Positions 27,288 through 49,261 of a stretch of DNA of 49,261 bases are shown one piece after another (within the stretch, counting starts at the first letter, position 1; each line of letters starts with the position of its first letter). The translations under genes and the position numbers were made by a program. This DNA comes from Candidatus Nanopelagicales bacterium (lineage in GTDB: Bacteria > Actinomycetota > Actinomycetes > S36-B12 > UBA10799). The stretch covers positions 1 to 49,261 of the forward strand of contig JBAYVO010000002.1 of the NCBI GenBank assembly GCA_041674545.1. Reading direction: 5' to 3'. The notes under the pieces were generated by a model. It made no database searches. It saw nothing but the letters and a program-made list of their open reading frames with translations, and was not told where the DNA came from.

Positions 27288-27923
27288 TCAGCGAACGGTG
27301 ACACCAGACTGGTGGTACATCAGCGTGGCCGCGACTCGCGAATTGATTGCCCGATCCCGGTCTACGCCCAGGACCGTGTACAGCCGCGCAATCGTAAGTT
27401 CCACGGCCCGAACCGACCTGCCCCGCGCGATAGCGATCTGCGCATTGCTCAGGCCAGAGGCCACCAGTCGCAGTGTCGCAGCCTGATTGCGAGTAAGCGC
27501 CGGAATGCCCTGCTCGTTGTTGTGATGAATGCCCGGCAAGCCTCGCGCTGCCCGGTCGATGGCGTTTCTCACCACTTCAAGAGAAGTGATGTCCGCCTTC
27601 ACGAGGTACGAACAGTCTCGCAACGACGGCGGGTCATCTTGGACCAGGTAAGGCGATCGGTGATCACTGATCAGCACTGCGGGGATTCGACGCGCCTGCG
27701 CAGCCCTGATTTGTGTGAGGAAGTCGAGCGCAGATGGCCCGAACGTTGGGACCAATTCGATCACAGCAAGATCAGCGTGAAACTGTTCGTCGTTCAAATC
27801 GGCCGTGGTGTTGCCCTCAACGTGCGCGACGGAGAGGCCGAGCTGAGTTGAAATTTCCGTCACGTACGAACTCACGATGACGTTCTTCACTGAAACGAGG
27901 GCGCGCTGCGACGGCCACTGCAT
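27288..27923 (-). CDS. NarL/LuxR-type response-regulator-like protein with degenerate (pseudo-)receiver domain
   Basis: C-terminal LuxR HTH LTRNQAATLRLVASGLSNAQIAIARGRSVRAVELTIARLY. Receiver-like N-terminus has SS instead of the acidic pair and Glu (VIELV) at the phospho-acceptor position. ATG 27923 has AAGGTGG upstream. Confidence 0.75.
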   Translation of the reverse strand: MQWPSQRALVSVKNVIVSSYVTEISTQLGLSVAHVEGNTTADLNDEQFHADLAVIELVPTFGPSALDFLTQIRAAQARRIPAVLISDHRSPYLVQDDPPSLRDCSYLVKADITSLEVVRNAIDRAARGLPGIHHNNEQGIPALTRNQAATLRLVASGLSNAQIAIARGRSVRAVELTIARLYTVLGVDRDRAINSRVAATLMYHQSGVTVR

Positions 27924-28148
27924 TGCCACCTTAACCGGACCCCTCGCCCGCCGCTTCGAACGGCTGAGGCGACCGAGCAGAATGTCTATGTGACATTGCA
28001 ACGTGCCACATAGGCATATCCCGGAGACTCACTGGCGACACGTTAGCTGGAAGACCCGTTCGCGCGTCATCGCGACCCGAAACATACGGCCAATGCTTGC
28101 ATCTTTCGTCTCTCTTGTCATTGCCTGTGCACTCGGCTCAAAACAAGC

Positions 28149-28247: not shown

Positions 28248-29516
28248 CTACACCAACAGTCCGATCTCGTTCATCGTGAGGATGATCGCTGCCATCGCTG
28301 ATTCACGCGCGAACGGCAGGTGCGTACGCATGTTGCGGATCGAGTCTGACCACGGGAAGCTGTCGTACGACATGTCCCAGTGGTTCGCGTGGAACATCGC
28401 CATGTGGATGGCATCCGGACCCGGCAGTGCTGCCTCATCTTGCGTCAGCTGCATATCGTTGTCTGAGTCGTACTTTGACAGCTCCAGGTAGCCCTGCAAC
28501 TGGAACGGCGGAACATCTAGCTTGCTGGTCGCGCCGCTGAAGTAGAACTGCGGAATGCGCAGCGACGCCAGCGTTTCGGCGTTTTCAGCCAAGAATGCTT
28601 CGCGCTTGGTCGTGGTCAGGGACTCGATGGCGGCGAGCACATCGACCTCGTCTGGGCGACGTTCGAAGGCGCCGAGCGGAACCATGGGATAGAGCGAATT
28701 CATCATGACCGTCGTGCCAGCAGCAGTGTGCTGGAGTTCTTCGAAGTTGGGGATTGCGCGTGCGTTCTTCAGCATGCCGTCTGCAAGCCATGAACCCCCG
28801 ATTGCGCCCGCCCAGCCGAGCACTGCCTTGATCCGCGGAGCGAGGTCTGGGCGCTCGGCCAGGAAGGTGAGGATGTCCGGCCCACCCTTTGAGTATCCGA
28901 TCATGATGACGTTGCCGGGAGGCGTCGGGTTGTCATCCGCAGTGATCAGCGAGGCGTCGGGATCAGCCGCGACGCCGATACCACGTTCCATCGCGTTCAC
29001 GATGTCTTCGACGTTTGCCTCAGATCCACGCATCGGGTGAACATCGGCACACAGGATGTCGACGCCGAAGCGTGCGCGCATGACGGGAAAGACCTTCTGG
29101 AACGCAATGCCGAGCATTCCAGTGAGCAAGCCGGGCACAAACAAGATGCTCGTATCTTCAATCTTGCTAGGGGTTGCGATCGGCATTTCAAGCTCAAGTT
29201 CGGCGGGATCCAGATGCTTGATCATGCGGTGGGCAACTCGTGCGCGGTCGACCTTCGAGTCGATCAAGCGCACGGGGAACGGCGCACGCGACGCCTTCTG
29301 CGCGTCAGGGTTTGCGGCGGCCTCGGTGATGAAAATGTTGCGGTAGCGGATGCCGATCCATTCGGAAATCACCGGGTCGGCCATCGCTGCCGCCGGATCC
29401 TTTTCAAACGCGGCACGCACCAGCTCGATGACGCGCTCGAAGTTGCCTGCTGCTAGGGCGTCTTTGATGGCTGGGTCCGAAGGGGCGGTTTCGTTGGTGC
29501 TGAGTTCTGTGGTCAT
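28248..29516 (-). CDS. Hypothetical protein, probable alpha/beta-fold serine hydrolase
   Basis: 422-aa ORF. GxSxG-type elbow in VIMIGYSKGGPDIL. No signal peptide; family not recognised. Confidence 0.55.
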   Translation of the reverse strand: MTTELSTNETAPSDPAIKDALAAGNFERVIELVRAAFEKDPAAAMADPVISEWIGIRYRNIFITEAAANPDAQKASRAPFPVRLIDSKVDRARVAHRMIKHLDPAELELEMPIATPSKIEDTSILFVPGLLTGMLGIAFQKVFPVMRARFGVDILCADVHPMRGSEANVEDIVNAMERGIGVAADPDASLITADDNPTPPGNVIMIGYSKGGPDILTFLAERPDLAPRIKAVLGWAGAIGGSWLADGMLKNARAIPNFEELQHTAAGTTVMMNSLYPMVPLGAFERRPDEVDVLAAIESLTTTKREAFLAENAETLASLRIPQFYFSGATSKLDVPPFQLQGYLELSKYDSDNDMQLTQDEAALPGPDAIHMAMFHANHWDMSYDSFPWSDSIRNMRTHLPFARESAMAAIILTMNEIGLLV

Positions 29517-29717: not shown

Positions 29718-30245
29718 TTACGCCCCGGCGGCTACCTTCGCAAGTGGCGTCAAGCTTGCGACGCTCGAAGACTGGATGAGGATCAAGGTCGAATCGAACT
29801 CCGCCAAAGCCGTGGCTCCCAACGGGAGTTGAACGACTCGGAATGCACCTCGATCTGTTTGTATTTCTTTGCCCAGCGTTGCCCCATCGCCAGGATCAGC
29901 CGAGATGAGTTTGTCGGCCTTTGCGGCCGGCGCCTCCGGGAACACCGTGATCAGGCCAACACTTTGCGAGTCCTTTGAGACCGCGTAGGTCGTCGACTCT
30001 CCTAGACCTGGGATGCGACTTGGCGCGGTGACTTCAATCGCCAGCCCGCCCTCCGCCGCAGCCGCCGCTAGCCCCGCTGGAACACCGTCGCTCGCTCCCG
30101 CGTCGGTCGGTTCTGGAGCCGCTCCGCGGGTCGGGCCATCCACAGCCGCAGAAGTCTCCGGCGACGGACTTTGACCCGCAGTCGAACATCCAGCCAGGCC
30201 GATGCCAAGCGCCACCAACAGTGCCGCAGATCCTGTTGAGTTCAT
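29718..30245 (-). CDS. Small lipoprotein, last gene of the RHS operon
   Basis: MNSTGSAALLVALGIGLAGC lipobox, then a Pro/Ala-rich linker and a ~110-aa domain. ATG 30245 lies 2 nt after the upstream stop. Confidence 0.6.
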   Translation of the reverse strand: MNSTGSAALLVALGIGLAGCSTAGQSPSPETSAAVDGPTRGAAPEPTDAGASDGVPAGLAAAAAEGGLAIEVTAPSRIPGLGESTTYAVSKDSQSVGLITVFPEAPAAKADKLISADPGDGATLGKEIQTDRGAFRVVQLPLGATALAEFDSTLILIQSSSVASLTPLAKVAAGA

Positions 30246-30247
30246 CG

Positions 30248-33200
30248 TCAATCCTTCAGTTCGGCGATGCGCTTGTCGTAGTCCTTCTGGACTGCGGCGA
30301 TCTTCGCGTTGTAGTCACTGGTGATCTGCGCCCGAGCTTTTGCGGCCGTTTCTTCCGCGTTCATCAAGTCGAAGAGCTTATTGGCGAGCAGACCAAACTG
30401 CGTGGCTGGGAGCAAGGTGTCATTCCCACCGTCGCTGATAAAGGCCAGGGGGTACATCCCAGCGAAGATCGTGTCCCAGATACCGCATTTGGCGTCTCCC
30501 AACTCAGCGGTGTAGAACATCGTCAAAACCTCGCGGGTGGTCTTGGTCTTGAACCCTGGGTACCCGCATCGTTCTACGGTGTCGTACAGCGCATCAAGTT
30601 CTGTTCTGGCATCAGCTGCCGGCGTCCCGTCGTCGATCGCCTGTGCGAGGGAAACACGGTCCGCCTCAGCAAACATTTCACTCGTGAAGTACCGCTCGTT
30701 CGGAGCTTCGGCAAGTACCTCCGCAGTCCGCTTCGGCACATCCGGGATAACGACTGCGGCCAGCTTCTCGTCACGCTCAACCTTGAGTGCCGCGATCTCA
30801 GAGTCACGCGCCTTTGCGAGTTCAGCCGCTGTCATAGAGACGATGGTGAGTTCGGTCTTGCCAACCTCTGGCTGGAACGATTTGCGCTTACCCACCGCGG
30901 TAATCGCGTAACTCGTGGAGGTCCCCTTCGGCGGGGCCATCCCGGTGAGTTTGCAACTCGTCGCAGTACCCGGCACCGTGCAGGCCGCACCTCCCGGTGC
31001 TGCCGTCACGACGTAGGACTCAGGTAACTTGCTCCCGCCGACTGGTGGCGACCACGTCACATCGACAACACCTCCGCCAATGTGCGCAGCCTTGAAGTTC
31101 ACCAGCGGTGCCGGTATCTCGGGATCAACAACGTGCAACTGAGTCTTGCCGACCTCAGGGTGGTAGTCCCCGCGGTTTGCCTGAATGGTGAACGTGTAGG
31201 TGGTATCCGTTCCGGCTGGCGCCAGCTTTGTAATGTCACAACTCGTGGCCGCGCCATCCACGGTGCACGTACGCCCACCAGGTTCGGCCTTGACTACATA
31301 GTTCTCTGGTGGTTTGTGGCCGTCGTTTCGTTGCTGCCACGCGATCCGCACTGTCCCGTTACCCACATTCGTCGCCGTCACGTTGTCTACGGGGGTCGGC
31401 TCGTTGGGATCAAACATGGTGATCGAACTCTTGAGAACCTTCGATGGCTCCTTGACGCTCCAAACCCGCACGTCGAGCTTCTGCCCCTTCGTCATTTGTT
31501 TGAGGCTTCCTCGACGGAAGTCTTGTGGCGCGGAGTTCTTCGTGGCGGGATCAATTACCAGCATCGCCAGGTTCTTCTCTTTCTGATCTGACGTCATGGT
31601 GATCCCAGAAATTCGCTGCGATCCATCGGTTTCAACCTTGACATCGATCACGGACTTACCGAGTCCTCCGCCGTCAAGGCGCCCGGTGACCGTCGTGGCT
31701 CCGAGCAACGGCGTCGACCCCTGTGGAACCGGGAATGCCGTTGAGTCTTGGACGTAGTGTTGCCGGGACTCCGGATCGAATGCCGAGCCTGCGCTGCGTG
31801 TGTCGAAACGTAGTTTCGAACCTGGCCGGACCACAAATGGCGTGCCCTTGTCGTGCATTGACGCGAACAACGGCGTCAAACTCACCTTGCCGTTGGCAAC
31901 CGGGACATCGAAGAGCTTGTGGTTGTCTTCGGTGTGCACAGCAAGGTTAATCGCACCCCAATCAGGAACGTTCGCCATCTGGATTTCACCAGTGCGTAGT
32001 TCCCCTTGGTCGTCTGCAGTGAACTTCCCCAGAATCGTGAGATACGGATTGTTGTGGTTGCGACCCCAATAGTTGCCCCACTGGAGTGCCTGATCGAAGA
32101 CTGCCTCAGCCGAGTACACCTCTTGTTCACACCCTGCGGTTGTACTCGCCTCATCCCACCCAGCGGGGTAACGGGTCTGTTCTGGTGAGGTTCCCCCGGA
32201 CTTCACCGGAACGTTCACTAGACGTGTTCCCACAAACCGAACATCAGGTTTGGTAGGCGCGACGTTGTAGAAGGACACCTTGTCAAGGTCCCCACCGTTG
32301 TACGTCCACTTGCTCGCCGGAGTGGTGTTGCCCAACGACGTATTCGATGCCGTCAGATTGTTGAGCGTTGTTGCTCCGCCGACGACGGTAGAACCAACGA
32401 GCGTTGAGTTATTCAACGACCAGTTATTCAGGTCGTTTTGCAGTTCCGCGTTGCGCATGCATGTGTTCTCAGCGACCATCGCATCCGAAGAGTTCAACGA
32501 CGCGTACGAAAGATCGGAGTTGGTCAATCGTCCGAAGCGCGTGTTTGTCCCAGCAAGCTTGCGCGCTGTCAGATCTGTGACGTCGGGAATCACGGAATTG
32601 CGGGCTACTGCCCAGTCAAGATCCACTCCACGAAACGTTGTGTTCTGATTGAAGAACCCGGTCAGATGTGACCGGATTTCGTTTTGCGGCGAGGTGTATC
32701 GCGGACCAAGGGTGGAGTTCTCGAACGTGACGTCTTTGATGTTGGGACCAACGTCAGACACGATCAAGCGAACCTGTTGCGTCGATGGGTCGGTTGCAAC
32801 AAGAAAGCGATTGGCGGGTTCAGTCGCCAACATGCTGCCCGCGCCGAGTCCGGTAGTGGACGGGATCGGAGCTGCCCAATTCAGTTGTTCCCCGGAAGCG
32901 ATCTGCGCGACAGGGACCCTGCCAAGCTTGCCGCCCTTGAGCGGGCCTACGTAGAGATTCCCGTCGCGGTCATAGTCGACGAGAGACGGACGTGGATCCT
33001 GTGAACCCTCGTCTTCGCTATCACCTTTGTATCCGGTGATCAGAGAACGGATGGTGCCATCAGGGGTCACGACTCGTACTGCACGATCACGAGTGTCTGC
33101 GATAGCGATCTCTCCCGATGGACTGACCGCAACGTCATTCGGCGAATCCAATTTCGATTCGCTGGCTGGCCCGTGGTCACCACACGGTGTTGATTCATTG

Positions 33201-34183
33201 CACGGCTTGCCGGTGGGGCTTCCGGCCAAGCGATCAATGTCGCCTGTCTCGAAATCGATGAATCGGACAGAGTTGTTTGCCAAGTCAGCGAAGTAGAGCT
33301 TCCCATTGGAAAACTCCATGCCTGCGGGCTTCGCTACCCGCGCCTCTTCGGCCGGACCAGCATCGCCGCTGTAACCAAGTCGCCCGTTCCCGGCGACTGT
33401 CGAGATCGTGTTGTCGTTGAGGTCAACTGCCCGGATCAAGGATGCCGCCTGATCGGCAATGAACAGGCGATTGCCGTCGGTGTCCAACGCGAGACCAACT
33501 GGCTCCGACAGGTCAGCGACCGTCGCATCGCTACCGTCACCACAACGATCTATGTCAAAGGTGCACTTTCGCCCGGAGCCGGCGATCGTATTGATAACGC
33601 CCGTCTTGACGTCGATCGCACGCACTCGCCGGTTCCGTGAATCGGCAACGTAGATGGTGCTGGAGTCATCGGTGATCAAAACGCCCGTGGGACCCGAGAA
33701 CTTCGCTGTTGTTACTTGCGCACCATCACCCTCGAACCCTGCAGTACCGGCGACCCCTAACGATTGGGAAACGAACGTCCGAAGAGGTGCGTCAAAGGTT
33801 GCCCAGCCATAGTCCGTTGCGCACTGCGCGTGCGGCCCTGTACCTGTGAACGGCAGCTTGCACGCGCCTTCCGGCGGTTGCCACGACGTACCACGCAGCG
33901 ATGCACCGCGGAAGGTCGCGCCCTGCAGATTTGCGCCATCGAACCTGGCGCCGTTGAGAACGGACGACTCGAAGGTCACACCTCGCAGATCTTTGCCCCG
34001 AAAGTCATAGCCTTCGCATTGCGCCGCGTTCTCCAGACAGCCGGCCGCGCCAAGCAACTGGTCGGTGTCATCAGCGGCGTTTCGCGAAGTATCAGAACTA
34101 CCGCATGCCACCAGGCTTGATGCGGCAATCAGACCCACCAACGCAACAGCAATTCCTCTGGTCCGTGTGGTTACACCTCTCAT
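30248..34183 (-). CDS. Giant lipoprotein (1311 aa): pentapeptide repeats - NHL beta-propeller - beta-helix-like region - Ig-like region - 2 FN3-like modules - helical C-terminal domain
   Basis: Start ATG 34183 overlaps the upstream stop (ATGA). Lipobox AASSLVAC. See sub-features. The track ORF extends to 34372, but that extension is Arg/Cys-rich with no signal peptide. Confidence 0.85.
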   Translation of the reverse strand: MRGVTTRTRGIAVALVGLIAASSLVACGSSDTSRNAADDTDQLLGAAGCLENAAQCEGYDFRGKDLRGVTFESSVLNGARFDGANLQGATFRGASLRGTSWQPPEGACKLPFTGTGPHAQCATDYGWATFDAPLRTFVSQSLGVAGTAGFEGDGAQVTTAKFSGPTGVLITDDSSTIYVADSRNRRVRAIDVKTGVINTIAGSGRKCTFDIDRCGDGSDATVADLSEPVGLALDTDGNRLFIADQAASLIRAVDLNDNTISTVAGNGRLGYSGDAGPAEEARVAKPAGMEFSNGKLYFADLANNSVRFIDFETGDIDRLAGSPTGKPCNESTPCGDHGPASESKLDSPNDVAVSPSGEIAIADTRDRAVRVVTPDGTIRSLITGYKGDSEDEGSQDPRPSLVDYDRDGNLYVGPLKGGKLGRVPVAQIASGEQLNWAAPIPSTTGLGAGSMLATEPANRFLVATDPSTQQVRLIVSDVGPNIKDVTFENSTLGPRYTSPQNEIRSHLTGFFNQNTTFRGVDLDWAVARNSVIPDVTDLTARKLAGTNTRFGRLTNSDLSYASLNSSDAMVAENTCMRNAELQNDLNNWSLNNSTLVGSTVVGGATTLNNLTASNTSLGNTTPASKWTYNGGDLDKVSFYNVAPTKPDVRFVGTRLVNVPVKSGGTSPEQTRYPAGWDEASTTAGCEQEVYSAEAVFDQALQWGNYWGRNHNNPYLTILGKFTADDQGELRTGEIQMANVPDWGAINLAVHTEDNHKLFDVPVANGKVSLTPLFASMHDKGTPFVVRPGSKLRFDTRSAGSAFDPESRQHYVQDSTAFPVPQGSTPLLGATTVTGRLDGGGLGKSVIDVKVETDGSQRISGITMTSDQKEKNLAMLVIDPATKNSAPQDFRRGSLKQMTKGQKLDVRVWSVKEPSKVLKSSITMFDPNEPTPVDNVTATNVGNGTVRIAWQQRNDGHKPPENYVVKAEPGGRTCTVDGAATSCDITKLAPAGTDTTYTFTIQANRGDYHPEVGKTQLHVVDPEIPAPLVNFKAAHIGGGVVDVTWSPPVGGSKLPESYVVTAAPGGAACTVPGTATSCKLTGMAPPKGTSTSYAITAVGKRKSFQPEVGKTELTIVSMTAAELAKARDSEIAALKVERDEKLAAVVIPDVPKRTAEVLAEAPNERYFTSEMFAEADRVSLAQAIDDGTPAADARTELDALYDTVERCGYPGFKTKTTREVLTMFYTAELGDAKCGIWDTIFAGMYPLAFISDGGNDTLLPATQFGLLANKLFDLMNAEETAAKARAQITSDYNAKIAAVQKDYDKRIAELKD
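30830..31408 (-). repeat. Two tandem FN3/Ig-like modules (~95 aa each, clearly paralogous)
   Basis: VTATNVGNGTVRIAWQQ...ENYVVKAEPGGRTCTVDGAATSCDIT...YTFTIQA aligns with FKAAHIGGGVVDVTWSP...ESYVVTAAPGGAACTVPGTATSCKLT...YAITAVG. Confidence 0.7.
32918..33760 (-). other. NHL-repeat beta-propeller region
   Basis: Repeated blades YVADSRNRRVRAIDVKTG, FIADQAASLIRAVDL, YFADLANNSVRFIDFETG, IADTRDRAVRVVTPDG. Confidence 0.8.
33884..34012 (-). other. Pentapeptide-repeat stretch
   Basis: GYDFRGKDLRGVTFESSVLNGARFDGANLQGATFRGASLRGTS. Confidence 0.8.
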
Positions 34184-36933
34184 CGGATGCCCAACTCTCG
34201 TACTCGGTTGTTTCCGGTATCCGCAACAACAATGGTTTCCCAGGGAGTAACGGCTACGCCTTCCGGTGCGTTGAACGTCGCCGTCAGCGAATCGGCGCCG
34301 TCGCCAGAGAATCCGCGCGCTCCCGACTTGTTCGCGACGATCCCAGGATCGGCGATTCCAAAGGTGTTCCAACGTGTGATTCGGTTCTTGCCGGCCTCAG
34401 AAATGACCACGTTGTCCGCTAAGTCGATCATGAGGTCCGTCGGCTCGTCGAGGTTGTAGTCGTCACCGTCGGCATCTCCAATCACGTACTTCGTGACCGT
34501 TCCAGTTGGACCAATGGATCGGATTTGGTTGTTGCCAGTGTCGGCGATCAGAACGTTGCCGTAGTTGTCGAGCGCGATCGCACGAGGACTGTTGAAGCTC
34601 GCCTTAAGCGCGGTCCCGTTGTTGCCCAGGCACACGATCCCTGCAACGTTCTTCGTGTTCGGGCACTTTGCCCCCGCGGCCGAAATCTCCGCCGGTGTTG
34701 ACGTTCGCTTGCCGACTCCGGCGAAGTTGCTGATCACACCGGGTGCACCGTCCTTGCTGGTGATGCGCCTGATCTTCTGATTTCCGGTGTCTGCCACGTA
34801 GACCGAACAACGCTGGGTATCGCAGTCGACGGCAAGTCCCATCGGCCGGTTCAGTTGTGCCTTGATCGCGGCAATGTTGTTGCCGCTTGAACCCGCGGCA
34901 CCAGTGCCGGCCAGGGTCACGATCGTTCCGTCAGTCTCAATACGGCGGATCCGGTTGTTGCCGGTATCTGCGATGTACACCCGTCCGGCAGGATCAACTG
35001 CCAATCCCGTTGGGGCGTTGAGCAGAGCCTTGTTCGCGGGACCGCGGTCACCCTCGAAACCTGATTTGTCTTCGACCCCAGCGACGATCGACGTAGCTCC
35101 ACCTTGGGCCAAGTCAATCTTGCGCACGACGTTGCGTCCAGTGTCGGACACCAAGACAATCTTGGTTCCGGTATCGCCGCGCTGGTAGGCAACGACCCGA
35201 GCCGGTTCGGCCAACGTTGTTGCCGAGGTGCCGCCCGCTTCTGATCCTGTCTGGCCAAGGATGGTCGAGACGTACGTCTGACAGAGATAGTTCCCTGCCC
35301 CTATGCATGGCGGAGGCATCGGCGGCGCGGACTTCGGCAACTCCTTACCCGCACATCCAGTCGTGGAGCTCGGCCGACTTCGGTCTGGGCAGTCAGCGAC
35401 AGTTGTGAACGACTTCGCTCCTAAGCCCTTCGACGCTGCGTAGGTAACGGGGGCTGGTGCCGAACCACTACCAGTGTTGAACTTCCAGGTGCCGCCAGCA
35501 CTTTGCGAGGCGGCATCGGGGAACTCGCTCTTGTCCAGGACTGCGCTTTCGAAGTCACTACCGAACAGGTAGGACCGTGCGAATTCGGCACTCGTCACTG
35601 TCGCGTTCGTGAACTTGCAGTTGATGCACTGCGTGCCTCGGAAGCTCGAACGATCAAGTTTTGCGTAGCTGAAATCGCCGTTGGCAATCAGTGCGTCGTC
35701 AAGGCGAGCATCGCCCATTTCCGCGTTCGCGAACTTTGGGGTCTTACCGGTGGAGAATATGTAGGCGCCTCGAAGACTCGTGCCCCGAAGGTCACTGCCC
35801 GAGAAGTCCGCACCCCGCGCGTCAACGGACGTCAGGTCCGCGCTGCCCTCGTTACCGCTAACGCCGCGGCCGAGTTGGGCTTGGGTTAAGACCGCGTCGC
35901 CCAACCGCGCGCGGGTGAAGTCGGCTCGATGCGCAGTGACACCGGACATCACTGCCTCGTACATGCTGCTGTTGCGGAAGTTGGTCTCTTGCAGGTCCGC
36001 TTGGGACAGATCGACTTGCTCCATGCTCAAACCGGAGAAGTCAGACCCCGCGAGCGAGGTCGTCCCCGTGAACTTGACCTGCATGAAGTCTGGCCTTGCA
36101 CCCAAGAACCGTGACTTTGTGATCGACATATTGGGAGCTTTTGTTTCACGCAGGTAGTCGCGATTCTGTGGTTCGACTAGGAACGAGGTATTGGCGTAGT
36201 TCTGGTTGCCCCAGGTTCCCTTCACATCCGAATCGGCATCTGCGTTCTGCACGAATCCTGGATAGGCAATGACTGAGTCCTCAACGGTCAGCTTGTTCTT
36301 CGCCCACTCGATCTGGTTCTTGACCAAGGTGGGGTCGATGATCACCTTTGAGAAGGTGACCCCAGATAGCTCGGCACCGCTGATATCGGAGTCGTACATC
36401 TGTGTCTGCGTGAACTTCGCGCCCGCCCAGTTCGCCTTTGTCGCGACTACGCCAGCCAACTGCGCTGGCCTATCAGAGGAGACGCCAAACACCGTGTTCG
36501 AGAAATTGGAGCCCTCGGCGAAGGTCGTGTTGTAAATGGTGGCCCCGGAGAAATTGCTACCAGACACATCGACTTTCCCGAACGTGATGCCGGTGATGTC
36601 GAGGTCCTTGAAATCACACGCCGTGCAACTGCCCGTTTGTAGGAGCTTGCGAATACTTGGGTCGGCCGACTCGTCTCGCAACAGTTGCTTCTTGTTGACC
36701 TTTGCTAGCCCTTGGAGTTTTTGGCGTTCCAACTCCCGCGCAGCTAGAGCGTCCTGATAGTCCTGACCCGCCTGAAGCCCCTCATCCACATCAGGTGCAG
36801 TCGCAAGCGTGATCGAGGTGTCATCATCCTGACCACCAGCCGATCGACTCGTCTCTGCTGTGTTCGCGCATGCACTTACCAGCAGCGCGCCGACGACCGC
36901 CAACGTGGCGAACCTGACTTGCGACTTCTTCAT
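34180..36933 (-). CDS. Giant lipoprotein (917 aa): long pentapeptide-repeat region followed by an NHL beta-propeller
   Basis: MKKSQVRFATLAVVGALLVSAC lipobox at ATG 36933. Pentapeptide region roughly 35512-36627 (e.g. ADLQETNFRNSSMYEAVMSGVTAHRADFTRARLGDAVL). NHL blades roughly 34183-35268 (YIADTGNNRIRRIETDG, YVADTGNQKIRRITSKDG, LIADTGNNQIRSIGPTG, VVADTGNNRVRELG). Confidence 0.88.
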   Translation of the reverse strand: MKKSQVRFATLAVVGALLVSACANTAETSRSAGGQDDDTSITLATAPDVDEGLQAGQDYQDALAARELERQKLQGLAKVNKKQLLRDESADPSIRKLLQTGSCTACDFKDLDITGITFGKVDVSGSNFSGATIYNTTFAEGSNFSNTVFGVSSDRPAQLAGVVATKANWAGAKFTQTQMYDSDISGAELSGVTFSKVIIDPTLVKNQIEWAKNKLTVEDSVIAYPGFVQNADADSDVKGTWGNQNYANTSFLVEPQNRDYLRETKAPNMSITKSRFLGARPDFMQVKFTGTTSLAGSDFSGLSMEQVDLSQADLQETNFRNSSMYEAVMSGVTAHRADFTRARLGDAVLTQAQLGRGVSGNEGSADLTSVDARGADFSGSDLRGTSLRGAYIFSTGKTPKFANAEMGDARLDDALIANGDFSYAKLDRSSFRGTQCINCKFTNATVTSAEFARSYLFGSDFESAVLDKSEFPDAASQSAGGTWKFNTGSGSAPAPVTYAASKGLGAKSFTTVADCPDRSRPSSTTGCAGKELPKSAPPMPPPCIGAGNYLCQTYVSTILGQTGSEAGGTSATTLAEPARVVAYQRGDTGTKIVLVSDTGRNVVRKIDLAQGGATSIVAGVEDKSGFEGDRGPANKALLNAPTGLAVDPAGRVYIADTGNNRIRRIETDGTIVTLAGTGAAGSSGNNIAAIKAQLNRPMGLAVDCDTQRCSVYVADTGNQKIRRITSKDGAPGVISNFAGVGKRTSTPAEISAAGAKCPNTKNVAGIVCLGNNGTALKASFNSPRAIALDNYGNVLIADTGNNQIRSIGPTGTVTKYVIGDADGDDYNLDEPTDLMIDLADNVVISEAGKNRITRWNTFGIADPGIVANKSGARGFSGDGADSLTATFNAPEGVAVTPWETIVVADTGNNRVRELGIR

Positions 36934-36950
36934 AGCGGTACCTATCAGCC

Positions 36951-39900
36951 TTAGGCTCGTCTTGGAGTGCGTGGGACCCAGATGGAGACCGAGGGTTGCC
37001 TGGTCGACTGGCCTGACAATGCCTTGATCGATTGGTAGTTCAGCGAGTACACGTCTCTGAACCAATCGACTGCCATTCGGCCGCTGTTGACCTTCTCGAC
37101 TCTGAACAGTCGGGTCTCAGACTTCGGTGCGTAGACATCAAGGACGTAGTCGTTGATCGTCGTACCAGCGTTCCGGTAGCCGAGCACGTAGACGTAGCCG
37201 TCACCGTCGTTGCCGACGTCCAATAACGTCACACCGGGATCAGTTGGGGCGTAGAACTGTTCTTCCTCAGAGTTGCTGTTCTCGCTTGCAAATGCTTTGA
37301 CTGGAACGCCGAGCAGATTGAATGCCGAGAGTCGCTTCGCTCCTTGTTCGAGGATGACCAACACGCCATTTGACGAGACGGCCAAGCCGACCGGCTTGTC
37401 AAACAGTCCTGGGCGAGCACCGTCCTTATTGCCCGGCCCGCCAAAGACAGATGCCACCGGCGCGGTGCCTTCATCGACGGCGTGGGACTTCAAAGCCGGG
37501 CGAAGGATCGACAGTTGCGCCGAGTCAGTATTGATACCGGTGATGAGCCCGCCCGGCGCCAAGGACGCCGCATGCACTCTCGTTGGGATGTGCCCGTACA
37601 CCTTCTTTGGATCGAAGACGATCGAATTGTTGCCGAGAGCCAATTTGCGAATGTGGTAGCCATCTTGCTCGTCAGCCGTGGCTGCTACAGGTTCAAGAAG
37701 CCACGCTTCCGCGACGCCGTTGGTTCGATTTTGCAACGGATCCGTCAGCACGATCGGTGGATTGCCGGTGTACGTGGTGCTCAATTCCGCGGCACTAGCG
37801 CCAGGATCTTCGGAGCTGTTCAGCTGGCGCACGAACCACTTGCCGGCCGATTTGTAGACGTACCCCATCAGGCCCGTTCCGTGCCCATACATGACCGAAC
37901 CAAGCGTGAAGTCGGCGTCATGAATGGTGCCCGGAACTTCTGCTCCCTGCGCCATCACGTAGCGGCCACCAGCAACGTCAGTCGTCCAACGACGCTCAAG
38001 CCGGGACTTGCTCCCGAGTTCAACGGCGTCCTCGAGCACAGTCACTTCGATAGAGTCTTTGACCTCCTTGAGGTTTGAATTGTCGAGCCAATCGGTCGCT
38101 GCGGAACCGACTGTCCAACCATCCTGGCTCAGGATCGTGATGATGTACTGAATCCTGCCGCCAAATGGGACCTGCGGAAGCGGGATCTCTAATGGTTCGG
38201 TACGTGGGTTCTCGAAGGCGGGAATGACGGCGTACGTGGAGTACTTGTCACCGTCGATGACCTCGATGGTTTCTTTGAAGCCCGCCGGGAGGTACTCCTT
38301 GCCCTCGGTCTGATTCTCCAGCAGCACAGTTACCTTCCAGCACGCTGCCGACTTTGAGAAACCACTATCGAATTGCGGCTTTGCCGTCAAGACTGCGTCG
38401 TAGGTTGCAGACAGATCCCAGTAGTTTGTGTCGTTCTGGCAAACCGCCCCGGTCGCCTGACCCACCTGGGACGCGGCGCCAGCCAATGCCGTCACGATGT
38501 AGATCTGCCCGTAAATCGGAATTGCTTTCTGAATGGTTGACTCAGTTAGCGTCTCCAGGTAAAGGCCCATCGCCTTGTAAATAAACCTGTAGGTGAGGAA
38601 GTCCAGGATCATCTTCGAAATCGCGATAATTCCCGCCGAAATCTGATTTGAAGTACTGGCCAGCCTTCCTTTCATCAATCCCTCGATCAGACCGAACACC
38701 GTCTCGATCCAATAGATCGCACCGAATCCAGACTTACGACGCTTCGCGATGTCCTCCGCCGTCAAGTAGGTGATTTCGATTTCACCATCGTCATGCTTGA
38801 TCGTCTTGTAGTCGCTTGTCGTCTGACTACACATGTTTCGGAATCGGTTGGCAGCAATCGCTTGGCTGAGGAACATCAATCCTGGAATTCCGATGTCGAC
38901 GACTGCGGTGGTGAACACAGCATCTTGGTACCAATCGGGACGGACGTAGTGATTGTCCGCAGTGTCGACGTAGGCCGGCAACAACTTTGGCTTACCATCT
39001 GGCCCCAAGACTTCGGTTCCATTGGCATCCAACTCGACAGACTTGAACAGATCCCGCCAGTCGTTGCCAGTGCCAAGTGATCCCGCGATTACCCGTGCTC
39101 GGACCGCTTCCGCCGGCATCGGGATCGAGATATCCAAGTAGTTCGAATCGAGACCAACCGGCAGGCCCATCACAATGGGAATTGATTCAAGCAAACGAGC
39201 CCCAAGGCGCCACGTTGGATCCAGCTTGTTGTTCGACAGCCGATAGTCGTCCGGTGGTGAAATCGGCAGATCTCTAGAGTCAAAGTACTGAACGCCGAAG
39301 GTGACAGTACGGTCGAGGTTGTTCCAGACGCGAAGCTTCAGCTGAGTCCCGCCACCCTGTGCCTGGCTTGTTTCTTTGAGCTGCACGTACATCCCGTTGC
39401 GACTCTTCTTTTCGCCCTGCAGGACTGAGTAGTTCACCTTGGCGTCGTTTGATCCGCGGAACTTCGCCAACACTCCGCCACCCGCGCTATTGCTCCTGGC
39501 TGCGTCGCTAACGGTTATTGGGCTAGGTGGAGTGGCCGGCATGACCGCCCAGGTCTTGCCACCGAGGTCGTTGAGGTCGGTCTCAGCGTTGATCATTGCA
39601 CCAAGGTCAGGCTCGGCCTGGACAACTTCATTGCCTTCTGCAAGCGCTGCCTGCAAGGCGGCTTTGTAGTTGAAGATGAGGTCGCGAGGAATCTCTTTGC
39701 CTTGCCACTTCATGCCCATCTGGACGAAGGGGATCAAGGTCTTTGCCGGGAGTTCACCAATCTCCGGATCGACGGAGATTGTCGGTTCCCCGGGGGGCTT
39801 CTCGTAGCTAGTCCCGAGCCTTGGGTCAAGAGTTTGCGGCACGATCTTGCCGGACTTCACGCCCTTCACCATGTCTTCGAGAATCCCGTACGGGGCCCTC

Positions 39901-45900: not shown

Positions 45901-48560
45901 TTCTTGACCCGAGTTGCTCCAAATGGCGCAGGCTCGTATTCGCTAGTTCCCGCCTCCTGGGTCCATTTGCTCGCACCTTGGCCGGACAGGGAACTACCCT
46001 CCATCCTGGTCGCTTGACCAGCTGCAGGATTTTCGTAGTAGAACGAAGCGCTCCCGGAATTCGCGTCCTTGCCGTTCGGGTATGGATCTCTCGTTGTCCT
46101 CTTTGCTGCGGTGTACGCCCGTTGGAGGAAGTGCTGATTGGTAACAGGTTCCCGTTTGCCATCCTCAGGCGCGAGCGTTATTTGGATGTTCTTCCCCGCT
46201 GCCGATGCGTCGGACTTACGCGACAAGTCGATATTGAATCCGATCGGCGAACCAGTCGCCGACTTGTTGTCACTGGAATTGTCGTAGGTGCAGCTGCCCG
46301 CAGTCTGACCATCTACAACCGCACAGAAACTACTCCCCAGCCACACCGACCCCTTGATATCTGGATCGGAAGTAGCAATCTTGATGGAGTACTCTTCGCG
46401 TTTCAGTGCCAGACCGCCCGTGATGCGCGCCGACCAATCTCCGCCGTTGACGCCGGACGGCACTTGGGTCGAGAACCCGCCGTCGTAGTTCAGCACACTC
46501 GTCGCTACCGGAGTTCCAGCAAACGAGGAACTGCCGAACCACGAGGCGATCATTCCGTTGCCTACGCTTGCGGGATCGCCATAGGTAGTCTTCGTCGATA
46601 GCACGGCGTTCGCGTCCGTGGGTAGGCACGGATTGTCTTTGAGGACATCCGCCGACGACTTGGGCGAACACTTTGTCATATTGAACGCAGAATCTGGCCC
46701 ACTGTACTGACCGATCTCCATGCCAATCTTGTCGTACTCATTGGCTTGAACTGTTGTTCCAGTAATGCTCGCGTATACGATCTTGTATGACGGGTGCCAA
46801 ACTGCCTGAGTCAGCGCGCCGTTCGGCTCCAACTTGTACAGCGGGCGGATTCGGTCATCGAAGGCTTGATGAGCGAGCTGCGCCGACTGTGAACCATCCG
46901 ACATCGTTGCTGTAGTCGTGGTTTGGTGCGTCGCTGGCAAGAATTTCGCGTCTACTTCACCAAACTCCTTGTAGGTTTTGGTGAGAACTTGGTGAACCCC
47001 GTTCGAAGTTAGAGCGGGGAGTTCTTGCATCTTGATTCGGCCAAGGTCGTCGTATTGAGTCCGCTGGATAATTGGATCCTTGGCAGGATCCGAGCCTGCA
47101 ACCAGGCTGCCTGCTGCCAACGATTGGTTCGCGATCTGATCACGCACGAGGAAGGGTCGATTGCGGTCGTCCCAACCAATGTCGTAGAACTGAATGTCAC
47201 GCCAATCGCAATCTCCCAGGGAGAACTCACAGCTCTGAGGTGCCCCCGTGAGGCGGCTCAACCTCGCGTGAGCCGCACCCTGCGGCTGGGTGTAGTCGAA
47301 CTTGGACCACTGATCGAACGGCTGTTCAAGCACGCAGATCATGCCGTCTGGGGTGTCAACGAAGCCTGGAGCTCGGCCAGAATCATTGCACTGCTTGTCG
47401 CCACCGTAGTAGAAGTTCCAGGACAAACCCGCTTTACTGACCGACTTCAGCAGTTCCCCGTCGCCTCGGTACGAGAGCTCGAAGGGCGCGCTCCCCGGGG
47501 TGTTGTACGTAGTCAACCGACCCTTGGAATCGAATGACCAGTTGGAGCCATCACTCTGCTGGGTGACGACGATCGAATCCGATCCTGTGGCGATAGTTGC
47601 TGCGAAGCCGACACCAGCAGCAGCGCCAGTTAGTGACTGACACTGCTTCCCGATTGAGGTGGGCTTACACCCGAGCATGGTCTCAGTTCCGGAAGTGTCC
47701 AGCGTGAGGAATTCTGTGAAGTCTTGGTAACCGTTTGCCGGCCCGAGGACCGCCTTCGACATCCCCTGCGGCAGACCGACCCAACTCCATCCCGCCGGTA
47801 GGCCTCCGCGGAATCCACTTGTGGCGTTGGTCTGTGGATTTACACCCAAATCGGCAGTTGTGAAACCTAGGCTTACGGCTCCTGACGCGGCCGGTGCCGA
47901 AATCTCTCGACTCTTCAAGGCCAGCGTGTTGCTGCCGCTGGCATCCCCTGTGTCAGCAATTGCAAACAGTCTGCGCTCGCTACGAGACGCCCCCGACTTC
48001 ACCGTAGTAGTGGTGACCATATAGCCAGCGCCAGTTGTCAGGGTTCCAGCAGGAACGATGCAATAGACCGACCCAGGTACTGAGTTGAGTGACTTGAGGG
48101 CCTTCTTTGGTGCCTTGTTGGAGCTGGGGATCGAACAATTCGGATTGGTGGCTGCCTCACCTGAGTCCCACTTGACTGCTCCGTCCCCCAACGCCCCTGC
48201 CTCGGCGACAACAAATCGATACGAGGTTGACCCTGGCTGTGCTGTCAGCTTGACCCGCGTACCGCCAACGCCCACCTGCTCGCTGACTCGCAGGTCGAGT
48301 CCCTGATCGGTGGGTCCAAGTGCACCGGGCATACCTGGGATGGTGTAGGCACCTCCTGCCAGACCACCTCCCCCGGATTCAAACCCGGCCGCTGGAGACA
48401 GCGAAGGCAACGCCCCGACAGTGACCGGGTCGGCGTCACCAGCTGATCGAGTGCTTTCGGCGGAGCCGCAGGCACTCGCAAGCAAGCTGAGGCTTACCAG
48501 TCCCGCAACGACCGCGTACACCCGTGAGGTGCGATTGCCGAATGCTGTCTTCTCGATCAT
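42912..48560 (-). CDS. RHS/YD-repeat lipoprotein (1882 aa) with PA14-like insertion and hydrophobic C-terminal payload domain
   Basis: Lipobox SLSLLASAC from ATG 48560. Numerous YD-type repeats (FDSKGRLTTY, YDDLGRIKM, DASGRVSTMISDQYGQV, DPKGNITDE, YGYDQDGRRI, WDKNGNY, RDLSGRVYEQ). RHS-core end motif present. See sub-features. Confidence 0.9.
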   Translation of the reverse strand: MIEKTAFGNRTSRVYAVVAGLVSLSLLASACGSAESTRSAGDADPVTVGALPSLSPAAGFESGGGGLAGGAYTIPGMPGALGPTDQGLDLRVSEQVGVGGTRVKLTAQPGSTSYRFVVAEAGALGDGAVKWDSGEAATNPNCSIPSSNKAPKKALKSLNSVPGSVYCIVPAGTLTTGAGYMVTTTTVKSGASRSERRLFAIADTGDASGSNTLALKSREISAPAASGAVSLGFTTADLGVNPQTNATSGFRGGLPAGWSWVGLPQGMSKAVLGPANGYQDFTEFLTLDTSGTETMLGCKPTSIGKQCQSLTGAAAGVGFAATIATGSDSIVVTQQSDGSNWSFDSKGRLTTYNTPGSAPFELSYRGDGELLKSVSKAGLSWNFYYGGDKQCNDSGRAPGFVDTPDGMICVLEQPFDQWSKFDYTQPQGAAHARLSRLTGAPQSCEFSLGDCDWRDIQFYDIGWDDRNRPFLVRDQIANQSLAAGSLVAGSDPAKDPIIQRTQYDDLGRIKMQELPALTSNGVHQVLTKTYKEFGEVDAKFLPATHQTTTTATMSDGSQSAQLAHQAFDDRIRPLYKLEPNGALTQAVWHPSYKIVYASITGTTVQANEYDKIGMEIGQYSGPDSAFNMTKCSPKSSADVLKDNPCLPTDANAVLSTKTTYGDPASVGNGMIASWFGSSSFAGTPVATSVLNYDGGFSTQVPSGVNGGDWSARITGGLALKREEYSIKIATSDPDIKGSVWLGSSFCAVVDGQTAGSCTYDNSSDNKSATGSPIGFNIDLSRKSDASAAGKNIQITLAPEDGKREPVTNQHFLQRAYTAAKRTTRDPYPNGKDANSGSASFYYENPAAGQATRMEGSSLSGQGASKWTQEAGTSEYEPAPFGATRVKKVTSALGSSSTFEYWGVDETPGDSDLAELGQIPDYLLDAKQLGSLKSITDASGRVSTMISDQYGQVSCTRTSNTSNVNSGNWSCTWRDEMYRQTKAVTAGSDGKPEIETVYTHDLLRTPGDAFTSSTAVTSTEGEPDHTVKQTVNRTQQVETYEDAIGTRSEFVMDPKGNITDEIVTAAPQDGKQAKSITIRNGYNELGYMTSTALGGIVVQRTTWGDAGPGNGMQLKRVEYPDIAMSLQPRYDNNAQLEGQTWTLKSGQKIEESIKTTLGQSLLSTEFAGEKAEYNYQGGTVLKRATIAGVDFNYGYDQDGRRICSAAGIANPGDTPKDCNQLPGHYSYTYANDRVVSTTNPQAAIPDNSWDKNGNYTQIGNMNLQYDATEQLSRATTPDGGILELKRDLSGRVYEQTMNAPTVAPVSLSNAQWKDARALLAKSRKLGTNQNQILDQYVAANVPAIPMPVDEPQRNAGEVEGDSTAPTESGDAQVAVPADPAASATAPTEPEAPVASATEQPDPQAPPTPAIPSGDESVEPAPSESASTDQPAPTEASPAQPAPGADAGPKTQTIKLGYSSPSGSPRVLYSDNDAAIMITLAGGLAIEGGTLTIPSLSGIGKLKIAADGSRGDRAPEFVGPYGEQIGNSDPSTANMPGSRLSTVGVRAFSRDLGTFMQPDPKVAAGAGQYSYGNGDPVNFSDASGTTAMGDWIKNGLTGGHHGMDAVSAGFFAVAWTFVTGALGVAMFKGMMKFNYFAKGGAWASIIVGAMYALEGYGMGFLSEEITTYGHVSMNNSLTWSFNGICATLTGIAGGLGYYFGRASNNLGEALQTVADNAQATLEQGVTALQNVPATITSVGQTVATGLEDASGKVAAVMKQEAIPAIKEAGISIGTSSGKGFAGATVGWGVGGLAGDAFDSYTGLGLKPLFQLAGGAVGGAIGMNFTPTIKAAVSYVRESRLGKGVAAWTRKAMLKGQGVLQQGAVLKTAVMTQISGRGSSVFNYF
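42915..43811 (-). other. C-terminal 299-aa payload domain: three hydrophobic helices plus Gly-zipper-rich segments (putative membrane-inserting toxin)
   Basis: AVSAGFFAVAWTFVTGALGVAMF, GGAWASIIVGAMYALEGYGMGFL, WSFNGICATLTGIAGGLGYYFG, then GFAGATVGWGVGGLAGDAF and LFQLAGGAVGGAIGMNF. Confidence 0.5.
43812..43937 (-). other. RHS repeat-associated core end (putative autoproteolysis motif)
   Basis: VRAFSRDLGTFMQPDPKVAAGAGQYSYGNGDPVNFSDASGT resembles R.Y.P..GRF...DP.G....N.Y.Y..N.P....DP.GL. The last DPxGL is degenerate (DASGT). Confidence 0.7.
44217..44540 (-). other. ~108-aa Pro/Ala/Glu-rich low-complexity insertion between the last YD repeats and the RHS core end
   Basis: PAIPMPVDEPQRNAGEVEGDSTAPTESGDAQVAVPADPAASATAPTEPEAPVASATEQPDPQAPPTPAIPSGDESVEPAPSESASTDQPAPTEASPAQPAPGADAG. 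Confidence 0.8.
44673..47540 (-). other. YD/RHS repeat (shell-forming) region
   Basis: Spaced YD-repeat signatures across about aa 355-1310 of the track ORF. Confidence 0.8.
46278..46556 (-). other. PA14-like (carbohydrate-binding) insertion inside the RHS region
   Basis: GMIASWFGSSSFAGTPVATSVLNYDGGF...DWSARITGGLALKREEYSIKIATSDPDIKGSVWLGSS follows the PA14 pattern (GL.gEYF....F.G.PV ... FS.RWTG.L....G.Y.F...SDD...LW.dG). Confidence 0.55.
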
Positions 48561-48743: not shown

Positions 48744-49261
48744 TCACTGACCGGACCGCCCGAGGGCCGTCAACATCTTGGCCTGGACGTTCGAGTACAG
48801 CTGGTACGACAGACCTTCACGCCGAACTTGATCCGCGATCAACACGCTCTGAGGTTGGGACGCCAGGAAGCCACCCCACCGATTCCCCCACATTGAGTAG
48901 GAAGGATCGAACTGCGCGCCAGCAATTACCTGAGCTTGCCGCTCGCCAAGCGCCGTCGCGACGTCTACCTGTTGATCAAAAGTCTCCTGCAGGGTGATGG
49001 CGACGTTTGAGGTTGAGACATCTGCGTTGACGGCTTCAGAAACCGCGCCGATCCCCATTACGAGTAGCGAACTCGAGACGAATGCCGATAGTGCGCTTGC
49101 AGTGCGGATCGCCTGCTCACTGGGAGTGCCGCTGGTCCCGCTCACTGCTTGCCACTGTTGCAACGCAACCTCGCTGAGTGCCTGATCCTGAGCCGACACC
49201 GCTTTGCTCTGGCCGGCTTGGACGGCGTACTTGGTGTTTGCCTCGGCCGCTTGGGCTAGCA
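48744..49261 (-). CDS. Hypothetical helical protein, 3' part (ORF stays open to the window end)
   Basis: The frame has no stop from 49259 down to the stop at 48744. The track shows it only from GTG 49199. Ala/Gln-rich helical sequence with one hydrophobic stretch ALSAFVSSSLLVMGIGAV. No family recognised. Confidence 0.45.
   Translation of the reverse strand, partial: LAQAAEANTKYAVQAGQSKAVSAQDQALSEVALQQWQAVSGTSGTPSEQAIRTASALSAFVSSSLLVMGIGAVSEAVNADVSTSNVAITLQETFDQQVDVATALGERQAQVIAGAQFDPSYSMWGNRWGGFLASQPQSVLIADQVRREGLSYQLYSNVQAKMLTALGRSGQ

Follow-up and report, generated by a model that had tools for sequence, protein, structure and literature searches.

An RHS cocoon lipoprotein inherited together with three large exported proteins in uncultured bacteria

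What does an RHS/YD cocoon do in the company of large exported repeat proteins, and do those proteins close its shell? The question is raised by a stretch of 49,261 nucleotides from a Candidatus Nanopelagicales bacterium (GCA_041674545.1, contig JBAYVO010000002.1, positions 1 to 49,261), hereafter the window, in which a gene for a predicted cocoon lipoprotein heads a minus-strand operon that also encodes proteins with pentapeptide repeats and NHL propellers. The first-pass annotation had taken this operon for a Tc-toxin or teneurin cocoon split across separate polypeptides, with capping or docking functions perhaps supplied in trans, and had proposed profiling the RHS gene against its NHL partners. 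That profiling came out positive: the RHS gene and three of its neighbours, g2, g3 and g4, recur together in five lineages, one of which comprises the window and two orthologous operons, L001 and L003/L013. We regard this partnership as well supported, and we favour, with a probability of about 0.6, a reading in which the shell is self-closed and the partners assemble around it for docking, scaffolding or targeting. The four core genes, all with export signals (lipobox or twin-arginine) predicted by reading the sequence, are as follows.

42912 to 48560, minus strand: RHS/YD cocoon gene, 1882 amino acids (aa) from the ATG at 48560; predicted lipoprotein with an LLASAC lipobox (regular expression and sequence reading).
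40734 to 42857, minus strand: g2, predicted lipoprotein of 707 aa with a short run of pentapeptide repeats (Pfam Pentapeptide, 1.1e-8); core partner.
36951 to 40718, minus strand: g3, 1255 aa, with a twin-arginine (Tat) signal (TRRRFL) and an NHL-like C-terminal third at about 36954 to 37871; core partner.
34180 to 36933, minus strand: g4, 917-aa predicted lipoprotein with a pentapeptide beta-helix at about 35374 to 36636 and an NHL propeller at 34183 to 35196; core partner.

How constant is this set? The window, L001, L003/L013, L009 (GCA_038906395.1) and L011/L012 all share the order RHS-g2-g3-g4, and two lineages, L004-L006 and L008, hold the same four families in rearranged order. Across the five lineages the homologues are about 27-42% identical to the window proteins, with L009 and L011/L012 at 30-42%; the orthologous operons L001 and L003/L013 are closer, at about 60% for the RHS protein and about 70% for g3. 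The contig of L004-L006 carries three tandem RHS paralogues, a Phd/ParE pair, a 498-aa gene, g2 and g3 (P0007, 27-29% identical), as well as a g4 homologue that is transcribed divergently and a gene for another NHL protein, of 684 aa; in L006 (4378-20381) the tandem paralogues measure 1820, 1790 and 1659 aa, and the Phd/ParE pair is followed by inverted partner genes. L008, a frameshifted assembly, has RHS fragments beside g4-, NHL-, g2- and g3-like sequences. Two further loci, L007 and L010, consist of a truncated gene or short contigs and are uninformative for co-inheritance.

Divergence within the set is congruent. Each of the four proteins has its highest identity to the window in L011, the next in L009 and the lowest in L004/L006: 33, 30 and 29% for the RHS protein, 42, 38 and 32% for g2, 38, 34 and 29% for g3, and 38, 36 and 29% for g4, a pattern that fits inheritance as a unit. 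Orthologues of g2 are full length in L011, L009 and L004 (32-42% identity), with a homologue in L008. Every g3 homologue aligned (6/6, met by search or as an operon neighbour; 1240-1328 aa) lies beside an RHS gene of the same family, as does the partial g3-like match in L008. The genes upstream of the RHS gene differ at every locus, so the conserved unit begins at the RHS gene itself. Because the RHS protein is always inherited with three large exported partners, the four probably work as one machine.

Could the neighbourhood be an accident, with abundant and unrelated envelope proteins of the NHL and pentapeptide kinds happening to lie near an RHS gene? Another pentapeptide gene does sit outside the operon, at 25581-27074, and extra NHL genes occur in the paralogous clusters. 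Against this stand the full-length orthologues of g2, g3 and g4 that go with the RHS gene in five lineages, diverging in parallel and set among different flanking genes, the six-of-six association of g3, and the start/stop codon overlaps within the operon. Six minus-strand open reading frames are packed within 29718-48560; from the RHS gene on, the gaps are 54, 15 and 17 nucleotides, followed by two overlaps of 4 nucleotides, and a promoter and terminator scan marked one terminator-like site on the minus strand, a weak one inside g5, the fifth gene. We consider a chance neighbourhood very improbable, since synteny largely refutes it.

Is the first gene truly an RHS cocoon gene? Its product divides as follows.

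47556 to 48467, minus strand: conserved N-terminal domain, residues about 32-335, defined by invariant columns in a nine-sequence family alignment that include a GLPxGWxW motif.
44559 to 47555, minus strand: YD/RHS shell repeats, residues about 336-1334, with RHS_repeat and YD_repeat, profile matches to RhsA 7q97 and Salmonella bongori Rhs, and Foldseek matches of a paralogue model.
46323 to 46559, minus strand: PA14-like lectin module, an insert within the shell (Pfam PA14, E 0.035 on the window fragment).
44217 to 44558, minus strand: Pro/Ala/Glu-rich low-complexity insert ahead of the core, delimited by family alignments.
43812 to 44216, minus strand: Rhs-associated core with the autoprotease motif (R1544; QPD1557P; DPVNFSD1579ASGT); TIGR03696, 31.9 bits, below the cut-off of 32.5.
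42915 to 43811, minus strand: C-terminal domain (CTD), 299 aa, 30.5 kDa, 31% Gly+Ala, with hydrophobic helices and glycine-zipper runs.

The assignment is secure at the family level, though the window protein is divergent. Pfam detects RHS_repeat in eight of nine family members (best E 1.4e-14); among solved structures the family profile finds RhsA (7q97) at 7e-10 and the S. bongori Rhs cores at 2e-7; and in Foldseek the paralogue model matches the shells of Rhs effectors, of the teneurin-like protein of Bacillus inaquosorum (BiTLP), of teneurins and of TcB-TcC with E-values of 1e-19 to 1e-13. The same model matches PA14 structures (E 1e-5, TMt 0.55). The low-complexity insert varies in length within the family and is almost missing from the third paralogue, L006 RHSc. 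Twelve invariant cysteines, arranged as six close pairs in the nine-sequence alignment, point to an extracytoplasmic location. The protein on record as P0001 is identical to the window product, and an alternative GTG start would extend the reading frame to 48602.

The autoprotease motif is intact. In Rhs proteins at large the canonical core motif is RYYDPxxGRFxxxDPxGL...NPxxxxDPxGL. The end of the core in the window protein reads VRAFSRDLGTFMQPDPKVAAGAGQYSYGNGDPVNFSDASGT and aligns with that motif residue for residue; R1544, D1557, D1573, P1574, D1579 and G1582 are invariant in all nine aligned sequences, and the motif DP[VI]NxxDxxG[TLNH] is found in 17/17 full-length family members. The view that shell and payload share one gene (42912-48560) thus held up, on family-wide RHS evidence, an intact motif and a CTD of 299 aa.

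What is the payload? The window CTD gave no significant family or PDB match, and two family members match a C19orf12-like glycine-zipper family at E 0.015. Across the family the CTDs are Gly/Ala-rich, 190-323 aa long (19-34 kDa), carry hydrophobic segments and are interlinked by significant BLAST matches; they are therefore mutually homologous, forming one diverging domain and not a polymorphic toxin collection. The CTD of BiTLP is likewise hydrophobic, is cleaved and enclosed within the shell, and permeabilises Escherichia coli when exported (PMC13018210). By that precedent, and given the motifs, we infer that the window cocoon most likely cuts off its hydrophobic CTD with the aspartyl autoprotease motif and holds it inside, and that the glycine-zipper CTD most likely acts on a membrane.

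If the CTD attacks membranes, might the partners exist to protect the producer? Known immunity proteins are small and toxin-specific, which counts against such a role for three repeat proteins of 700-1300 aa; on this account g2, and possibly g3 and g4, would shield the producer's membrane and the locus would be a polymorphic-toxin locus with unusually large immunity proteins. Position lends it something: g2 directly follows the RHS gene in the window, L001, L003, L009 and L011, and is predicted to be lipid-anchored on the membrane face where the CTD would act; moreover, since the CTDs are homologous, one protector could serve several paralogues. The downstream neighbour of a teneurin-like protein gene is, furthermore, almost always an immunity gene (PMC13018210). 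In L004-L006 and L008, however, g2 adjoins g3 and not the RHS gene, and the CTDs are non-polymorphic, unlike those in toxin-immunity arms races. A hypervariable CTD with a small cognate immunity gene directly downstream was not found: at loci with the window gene order the next gene is g2, a lipoprotein of 700-890 aa, and on the contig of L004-L006 no gene lies between the three tandem RHS genes. We therefore judge protective partners improbable and return to the assembly around a self-closed shell.

The next question concerns the partners' propellers and what closes cocoons elsewhere. Two genes beyond the conserved core are involved here.

30248 to 34183, minus strand: g5, 1311-aa predicted lipoprotein with pentapeptide segments, NHL at 32804 to 33781, two FN3 domains at 30932 to 31393 and a helical tail; accessory.
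29718 to 30251, minus strand: g6, predicted lipoprotein of 177 aa; at its start it overlaps the end of g5.

NHL domains had been assigned to three genes. In g5 (32918-33760) and g4 (34183-35268) they fall inside strong domains, with TEN_NHL (PF25021) above its cut-off at 3.8e-21 and 6.1e-21, respectively. The best PDB relative of both is the NHL domain of BiTLP, at 2.5e-51 for g4 (next best 4e-30) and 1.3e-38 for g5 (next best 1.4e-29), with alignments confined to residues 927-1090 of BiTLP, its NHL region; these propellers are teneurin-like in that BiTLP NHL is by far their closest solved relative. The third, at the g3 C-terminus, is weaker (Pfam NHL, E 0.13), yet the g3 family profile matches TRIM71 NHL at 7.6e-6 in two stretches and NHL propellers are the top Foldseek matches of a low-confidence g3 model (about 1e-5), real enough to accept as NHL-like. 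The tandem FN3-like modules placed at 30830-31408 correspond to two Pfam fn3 (PF00041) matches, at 31166-31393 (8e-10) and 30932-31108 (4e-5; 24.1 bits against a cut-off of 25).

Do these modules cap the cocoon? One possibility is that the RHS protein builds an incomplete cocoon that is capped or gated by the NHL domains of g4, g5 or g3 or by the FN3 pair, as a split teneurin/Tc superfold. The NHL domains are indeed of the TEN_NHL type, with BiTLP their closest solved relative by a wide margin, and proteins that carry them accompany the RHS gene from lineage to lineage; a shell of this length usually encloses a CTD about half as large; and Tc toxins offer a precedent of a propeller in trans, with 4o9x and 6h6e among the Foldseek matches. 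The premise of the first-pass annotation, that a propeller and a plug together close the shell, survives in part: a propeller closes TcB-TcC, whereas in teneurins and bacterial teneurin-like proteins (TLPs) it is the FN-plug that seals the shell, not the NHL domain, which lies at about 60 degrees to the shell axis (PMC13018210). An NHL domain supplied in trans, by analogy with one that stands beside the shell, does not imply a cap. Nor does the FN3 pair qualify as a teneurin-type FN-plug, being canonical fn3, about 500 residues from the g5 NHL domain and encoded by an accessory, non-core gene; family scans of the RHS protein and all partners gave no FN-plug match. In addition, the shell is most closely related to Rhs cages that close themselves and to PA14-RHS proteins, which lack NHL, and the RHS protein retains a conserved N-terminal domain of about 300 aa, which has no Pfam or PDB match and is a candidate for the protein's own plug, along with a full C-terminal core. 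Capping in trans is not the reading we favour, and we think it unlikely.

The size of the shell speaks to the same point. Without the PA14 and low-complexity inserts, residues of about 270-1583 amount to some 1050, about as many as a full, self-closed Rhs cage contains; in Foldseek, alignments of the paralogue model cover whole cages (1020-1084 residues), with TM-scores to them of about 0.13. A cage-sized shell, relatives of the Rhs type and the accessory standing of the FN3 pair favour a self-contained cocoon.

Several observations weigh against an assembly around a self-closed shell. The window protein itself scores below the curated cut-offs for Pfam RHS_repeat (E 5.6e-4, 20.7 bits against 22) and, more narrowly, for the TIGR03696 Rhs core. 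AlphaFold2 models, of the paralogue shell from the nine-sequence alignment (pLDDT 60.4, pTM 0.32, core region below 30) and of g3 from six sequences (pLDDT 47), are too poor to judge closure, interfaces or fold and served solely for their local Foldseek signals. A CTD of 19-34 kDa is about twice the usual for a shell of some 1050 residues, which makes an enlarged or partner-completed chamber conceivable. With no immunity gene evident, a toxin role is uncertain; and physical contact between the cocoon and its partners is putative, argued from co-inheritance.

A bolder picture is that of the teneurin superfold in pieces: an undescribed surface machine of Gram-positive type in which a free-standing cocoon with 20-34 kDa of membrane-inserting cargo would rely for docking, gating or enlargement on TLP-type NHL propellers borne on rigid pentapeptide stalks (g4, g5) and on Tat-exported g3, whose central long helices might be the membrane-facing part. 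We hold this to be distinctly unlikely. If true, it would make the system either a fission product or a pre-fusion relative of the teneurin ancestor. A shell derived by fission from a fused TLP was considered separately and is unsupported, the next-best library relatives being PA14-RHS proteins, and none of the 147 library proteins fetched having an NHL; for the NHL domains a fission origin is still conceivable.

How, then, might the favoured assembly work? The picture is of a conserved, wholly exported multi-protein RHS system in which the cocoon is a surface-exposed lipoprotein. The YD cocoon that the RHS protein builds would be roughly as large as a complete Rhs cage, and the PA14 lectin-like module on its surface may bind glycans. 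The partners g2, g3 and g4 would act with the cocoon outside the cytoplasmic membrane, most likely as the docking, scaffolding or targeting assembly and not as the lid of an open shell, while g5 and g6 appear to be clade-specific additions. The hosts are uncultured bacteria, judging by flanking genes probably Actinomycetota.

The distribution of the accessory genes is in line with that last assignment of roles. Orthologues of g5 are found only in L001 and L003/L013, duplicated in the latter, and no g5 homologue occurs in the stretches read of the distant loci; g6 has an orthologue in L013 (43% identity) and no Pfam or NCBIfam match. Both genes are limited to the window's clade. Lipobox-like cysteines follow a hydrophobic stretch at the starts of the RHS protein, g2, g4, g5 and g6. 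Large parts of the partners matched nothing in the searches: neither most of the length of g2 nor the central and tail parts of g5 gave a significant hit to a family or a PDB entry, and g3 beyond its Tat signal and NHL-like end matched no known domain. By comparison, g4 is well covered, with Pfam scores of 1.1e-31 for Pentapeptide, 2.4e-22 for NHL and 6.1e-21 for TEN_NHL; its start was chosen as the ATG that matches the orthologues. In the low-confidence model, g3 residues of about 590-760 (window 38600-38950, minus strand) form a block of predicted long helices, one of about 56 residues, with a hydrophobic segment at residues 599-623; no relative of known fold was found for this block.

Several neighbours deserve mention. 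The pentapeptide gene outside the operon (25581-27074, minus strand), 2.6 kb past its end, encodes a protein of 497 aa that consists almost entirely of pentapeptide repeats (Pfam 3.7e-82, 10 stretches) and may be a loosely linked extra component; in L010 a 543-aa pentapeptide lipoprotein adjoins the RHS gene. Regulators of the LuxR/GerE family lie near the RHS cassette in three independent loci (window 27288-28001 and 20489-23227, both minus strand; L003 6201-7849; L010 4325-5419); of the two in the window, one matches GerE weakly (3e-4) and the other, with AAA_16+GerE, is of the LAL type. They are possible dedicated regulators of the cassette. Some 200 nucleotides downstream of g6, a 422-aa open reading frame (28248-29516, minus strand) has no Pfam, NCBIfam or PDB match. 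At the other end, a truncated, Ala/Gln-rich open reading frame lies upstream of the RHS gene (48744-49259, minus strand); we rejected it as a member of the system, as it is not homologous to the upstream gene of L003 and upstream genes vary from locus to locus.

The RHS family is rare. Word-indexed homology searches returned only 3, 4 and 5 proteins and missed known paralogues, and an exhaustive profile search of 1.84 billion representative proteins was used instead. Among its 170 hits, about 16 clusters make up the family, all with E below 1e-100, the full-length ones 1696-1932 aa long; most have a lipobox and all have the core motif. Beyond the family the E-value falls sharply to 1e-35. The four next-tier proteins scanned (P0030, P0042, P0048 and P0051) are all RHS proteins with PA14 and GLEYA domains, P0030 having PA14 inside its RHS region and a Tox-REase-7 end. 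Probing with the window's own NHL domains found NHL in 0/147 library proteins fetched from the representative search. Scans with the RHS and g3 alignments found no relatives in GTDB representative genomes, nor did the g3 alignment in JGI metagenomes. The window locus was met in a landfill metagenome, with a partial match in groundwater, in DNA metagenome runs only. For so small a family, drawn from uncultured bacteria of landfill and groundwater, any function is likely to be new biology and not a variant of a studied model. The literature searched gave no account of pentapeptide-NHL proteins and a Tat-exported protein being inherited alongside an RHS gene: the parts are all of known kinds, and it is their combination and its conservation that are new.

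Which known system does it most resemble? TLPs, represented by BiTLP (9IFO/9PT5), share with it a YD shell, a DPxG-type autoprotease motif, a hydrophobic CTD, the same type of NHL domain, surface display via lipoprotein or Sec signals, and a rare occurrence scattered across bacterial phyla. In TLPs, however, FN-plug, NHL and YD-shell are fused in invariant order, and the CTD averages about 15 kDa within a cavity of 44,000 cubic angstroms (PMC13018210), whereas here NHL is on separate proteins, joined to a pentapeptide beta-helix in g4 and g5, no FN-plug or TIP domain was detected, and the CTD is two to three times larger, conserved instead of polymorphic, and comes with no small immunity gene. 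The shell sequence is also nearer to classical Rhs than to TEN_YD-shell: PF25023 gives weak or faint matches only, in two distant family members, and by sequence the family profile did not find BiTLP, teneurins or TcB/TcC among solved structures.

The best shell matches, by profile and Foldseek, are instead the Rhs effectors of type VI secretion systems (T6SS), namely RhsA (7Q97), Tse5 (8CP6), Tse15 (8UY4) and S. bongori Rhs (8QJB-D), which likewise have the Rhs core motif and a cage of about 1050 residues. Among them, Tse5 also has a membrane-active CTD. These effectors are loaded on VgrG/PAAR and fired by the T6SS of Gram-negative bacteria; the window protein has a lipoprotein signal, and no secretion-system genes lie in the window. 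Here, too, the shell carries PA14 and low-complexity inserts, the large exported partners are obligate, there is no immunity gene, and the CTDs are non-polymorphic.

PA14-bearing RHS polymorphic toxins, the same four next-tier proteins, are the nearest outgroup in the library and have PA14 inserted inside the RHS region, as the window family does. They differ in having further PA14/GLEYA arrays at the N-terminus, and P0030, alone among the four scanned, bears a classical toxin CTD, Tox-REase-7; their E-values to the family profile are about 1e-24 or weaker, compared with less than 1e-100 within the family.

Tc toxins, with TcB-TcC (4O9X) docked on TcA, are like the present system in being made of several polypeptides and in having a CTD of about 30 kDa. 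There, a propeller on TcB closes the shell that TcC completes, the CTD is held unfolded, and the cocoon docks on the large partner TcA. The shell here is by contrast a single polypeptide about half the size of TcB-TcC, and its propellers are of the NHL type; Pfam and NCBIfam scans of seven operon proteins gave no TcA, SpvB-type N-terminus or TcB-type propeller.

RHS cocoons have thus been known in three settings, as T6SS cargo, as Tc-toxin subunits and as single-chain teneurin-like proteins, and the present system would be a fourth, in which two of three co-inherited partners carry an NHL propeller of the kind that in teneurins is fused to the shell. If the proteins assemble, they would illustrate how bacteria that have no T6SS might deliver RHS cargo, and how YD shells recruited propellers before or after gene fusion, which bears on the origin of the teneurin superfold.

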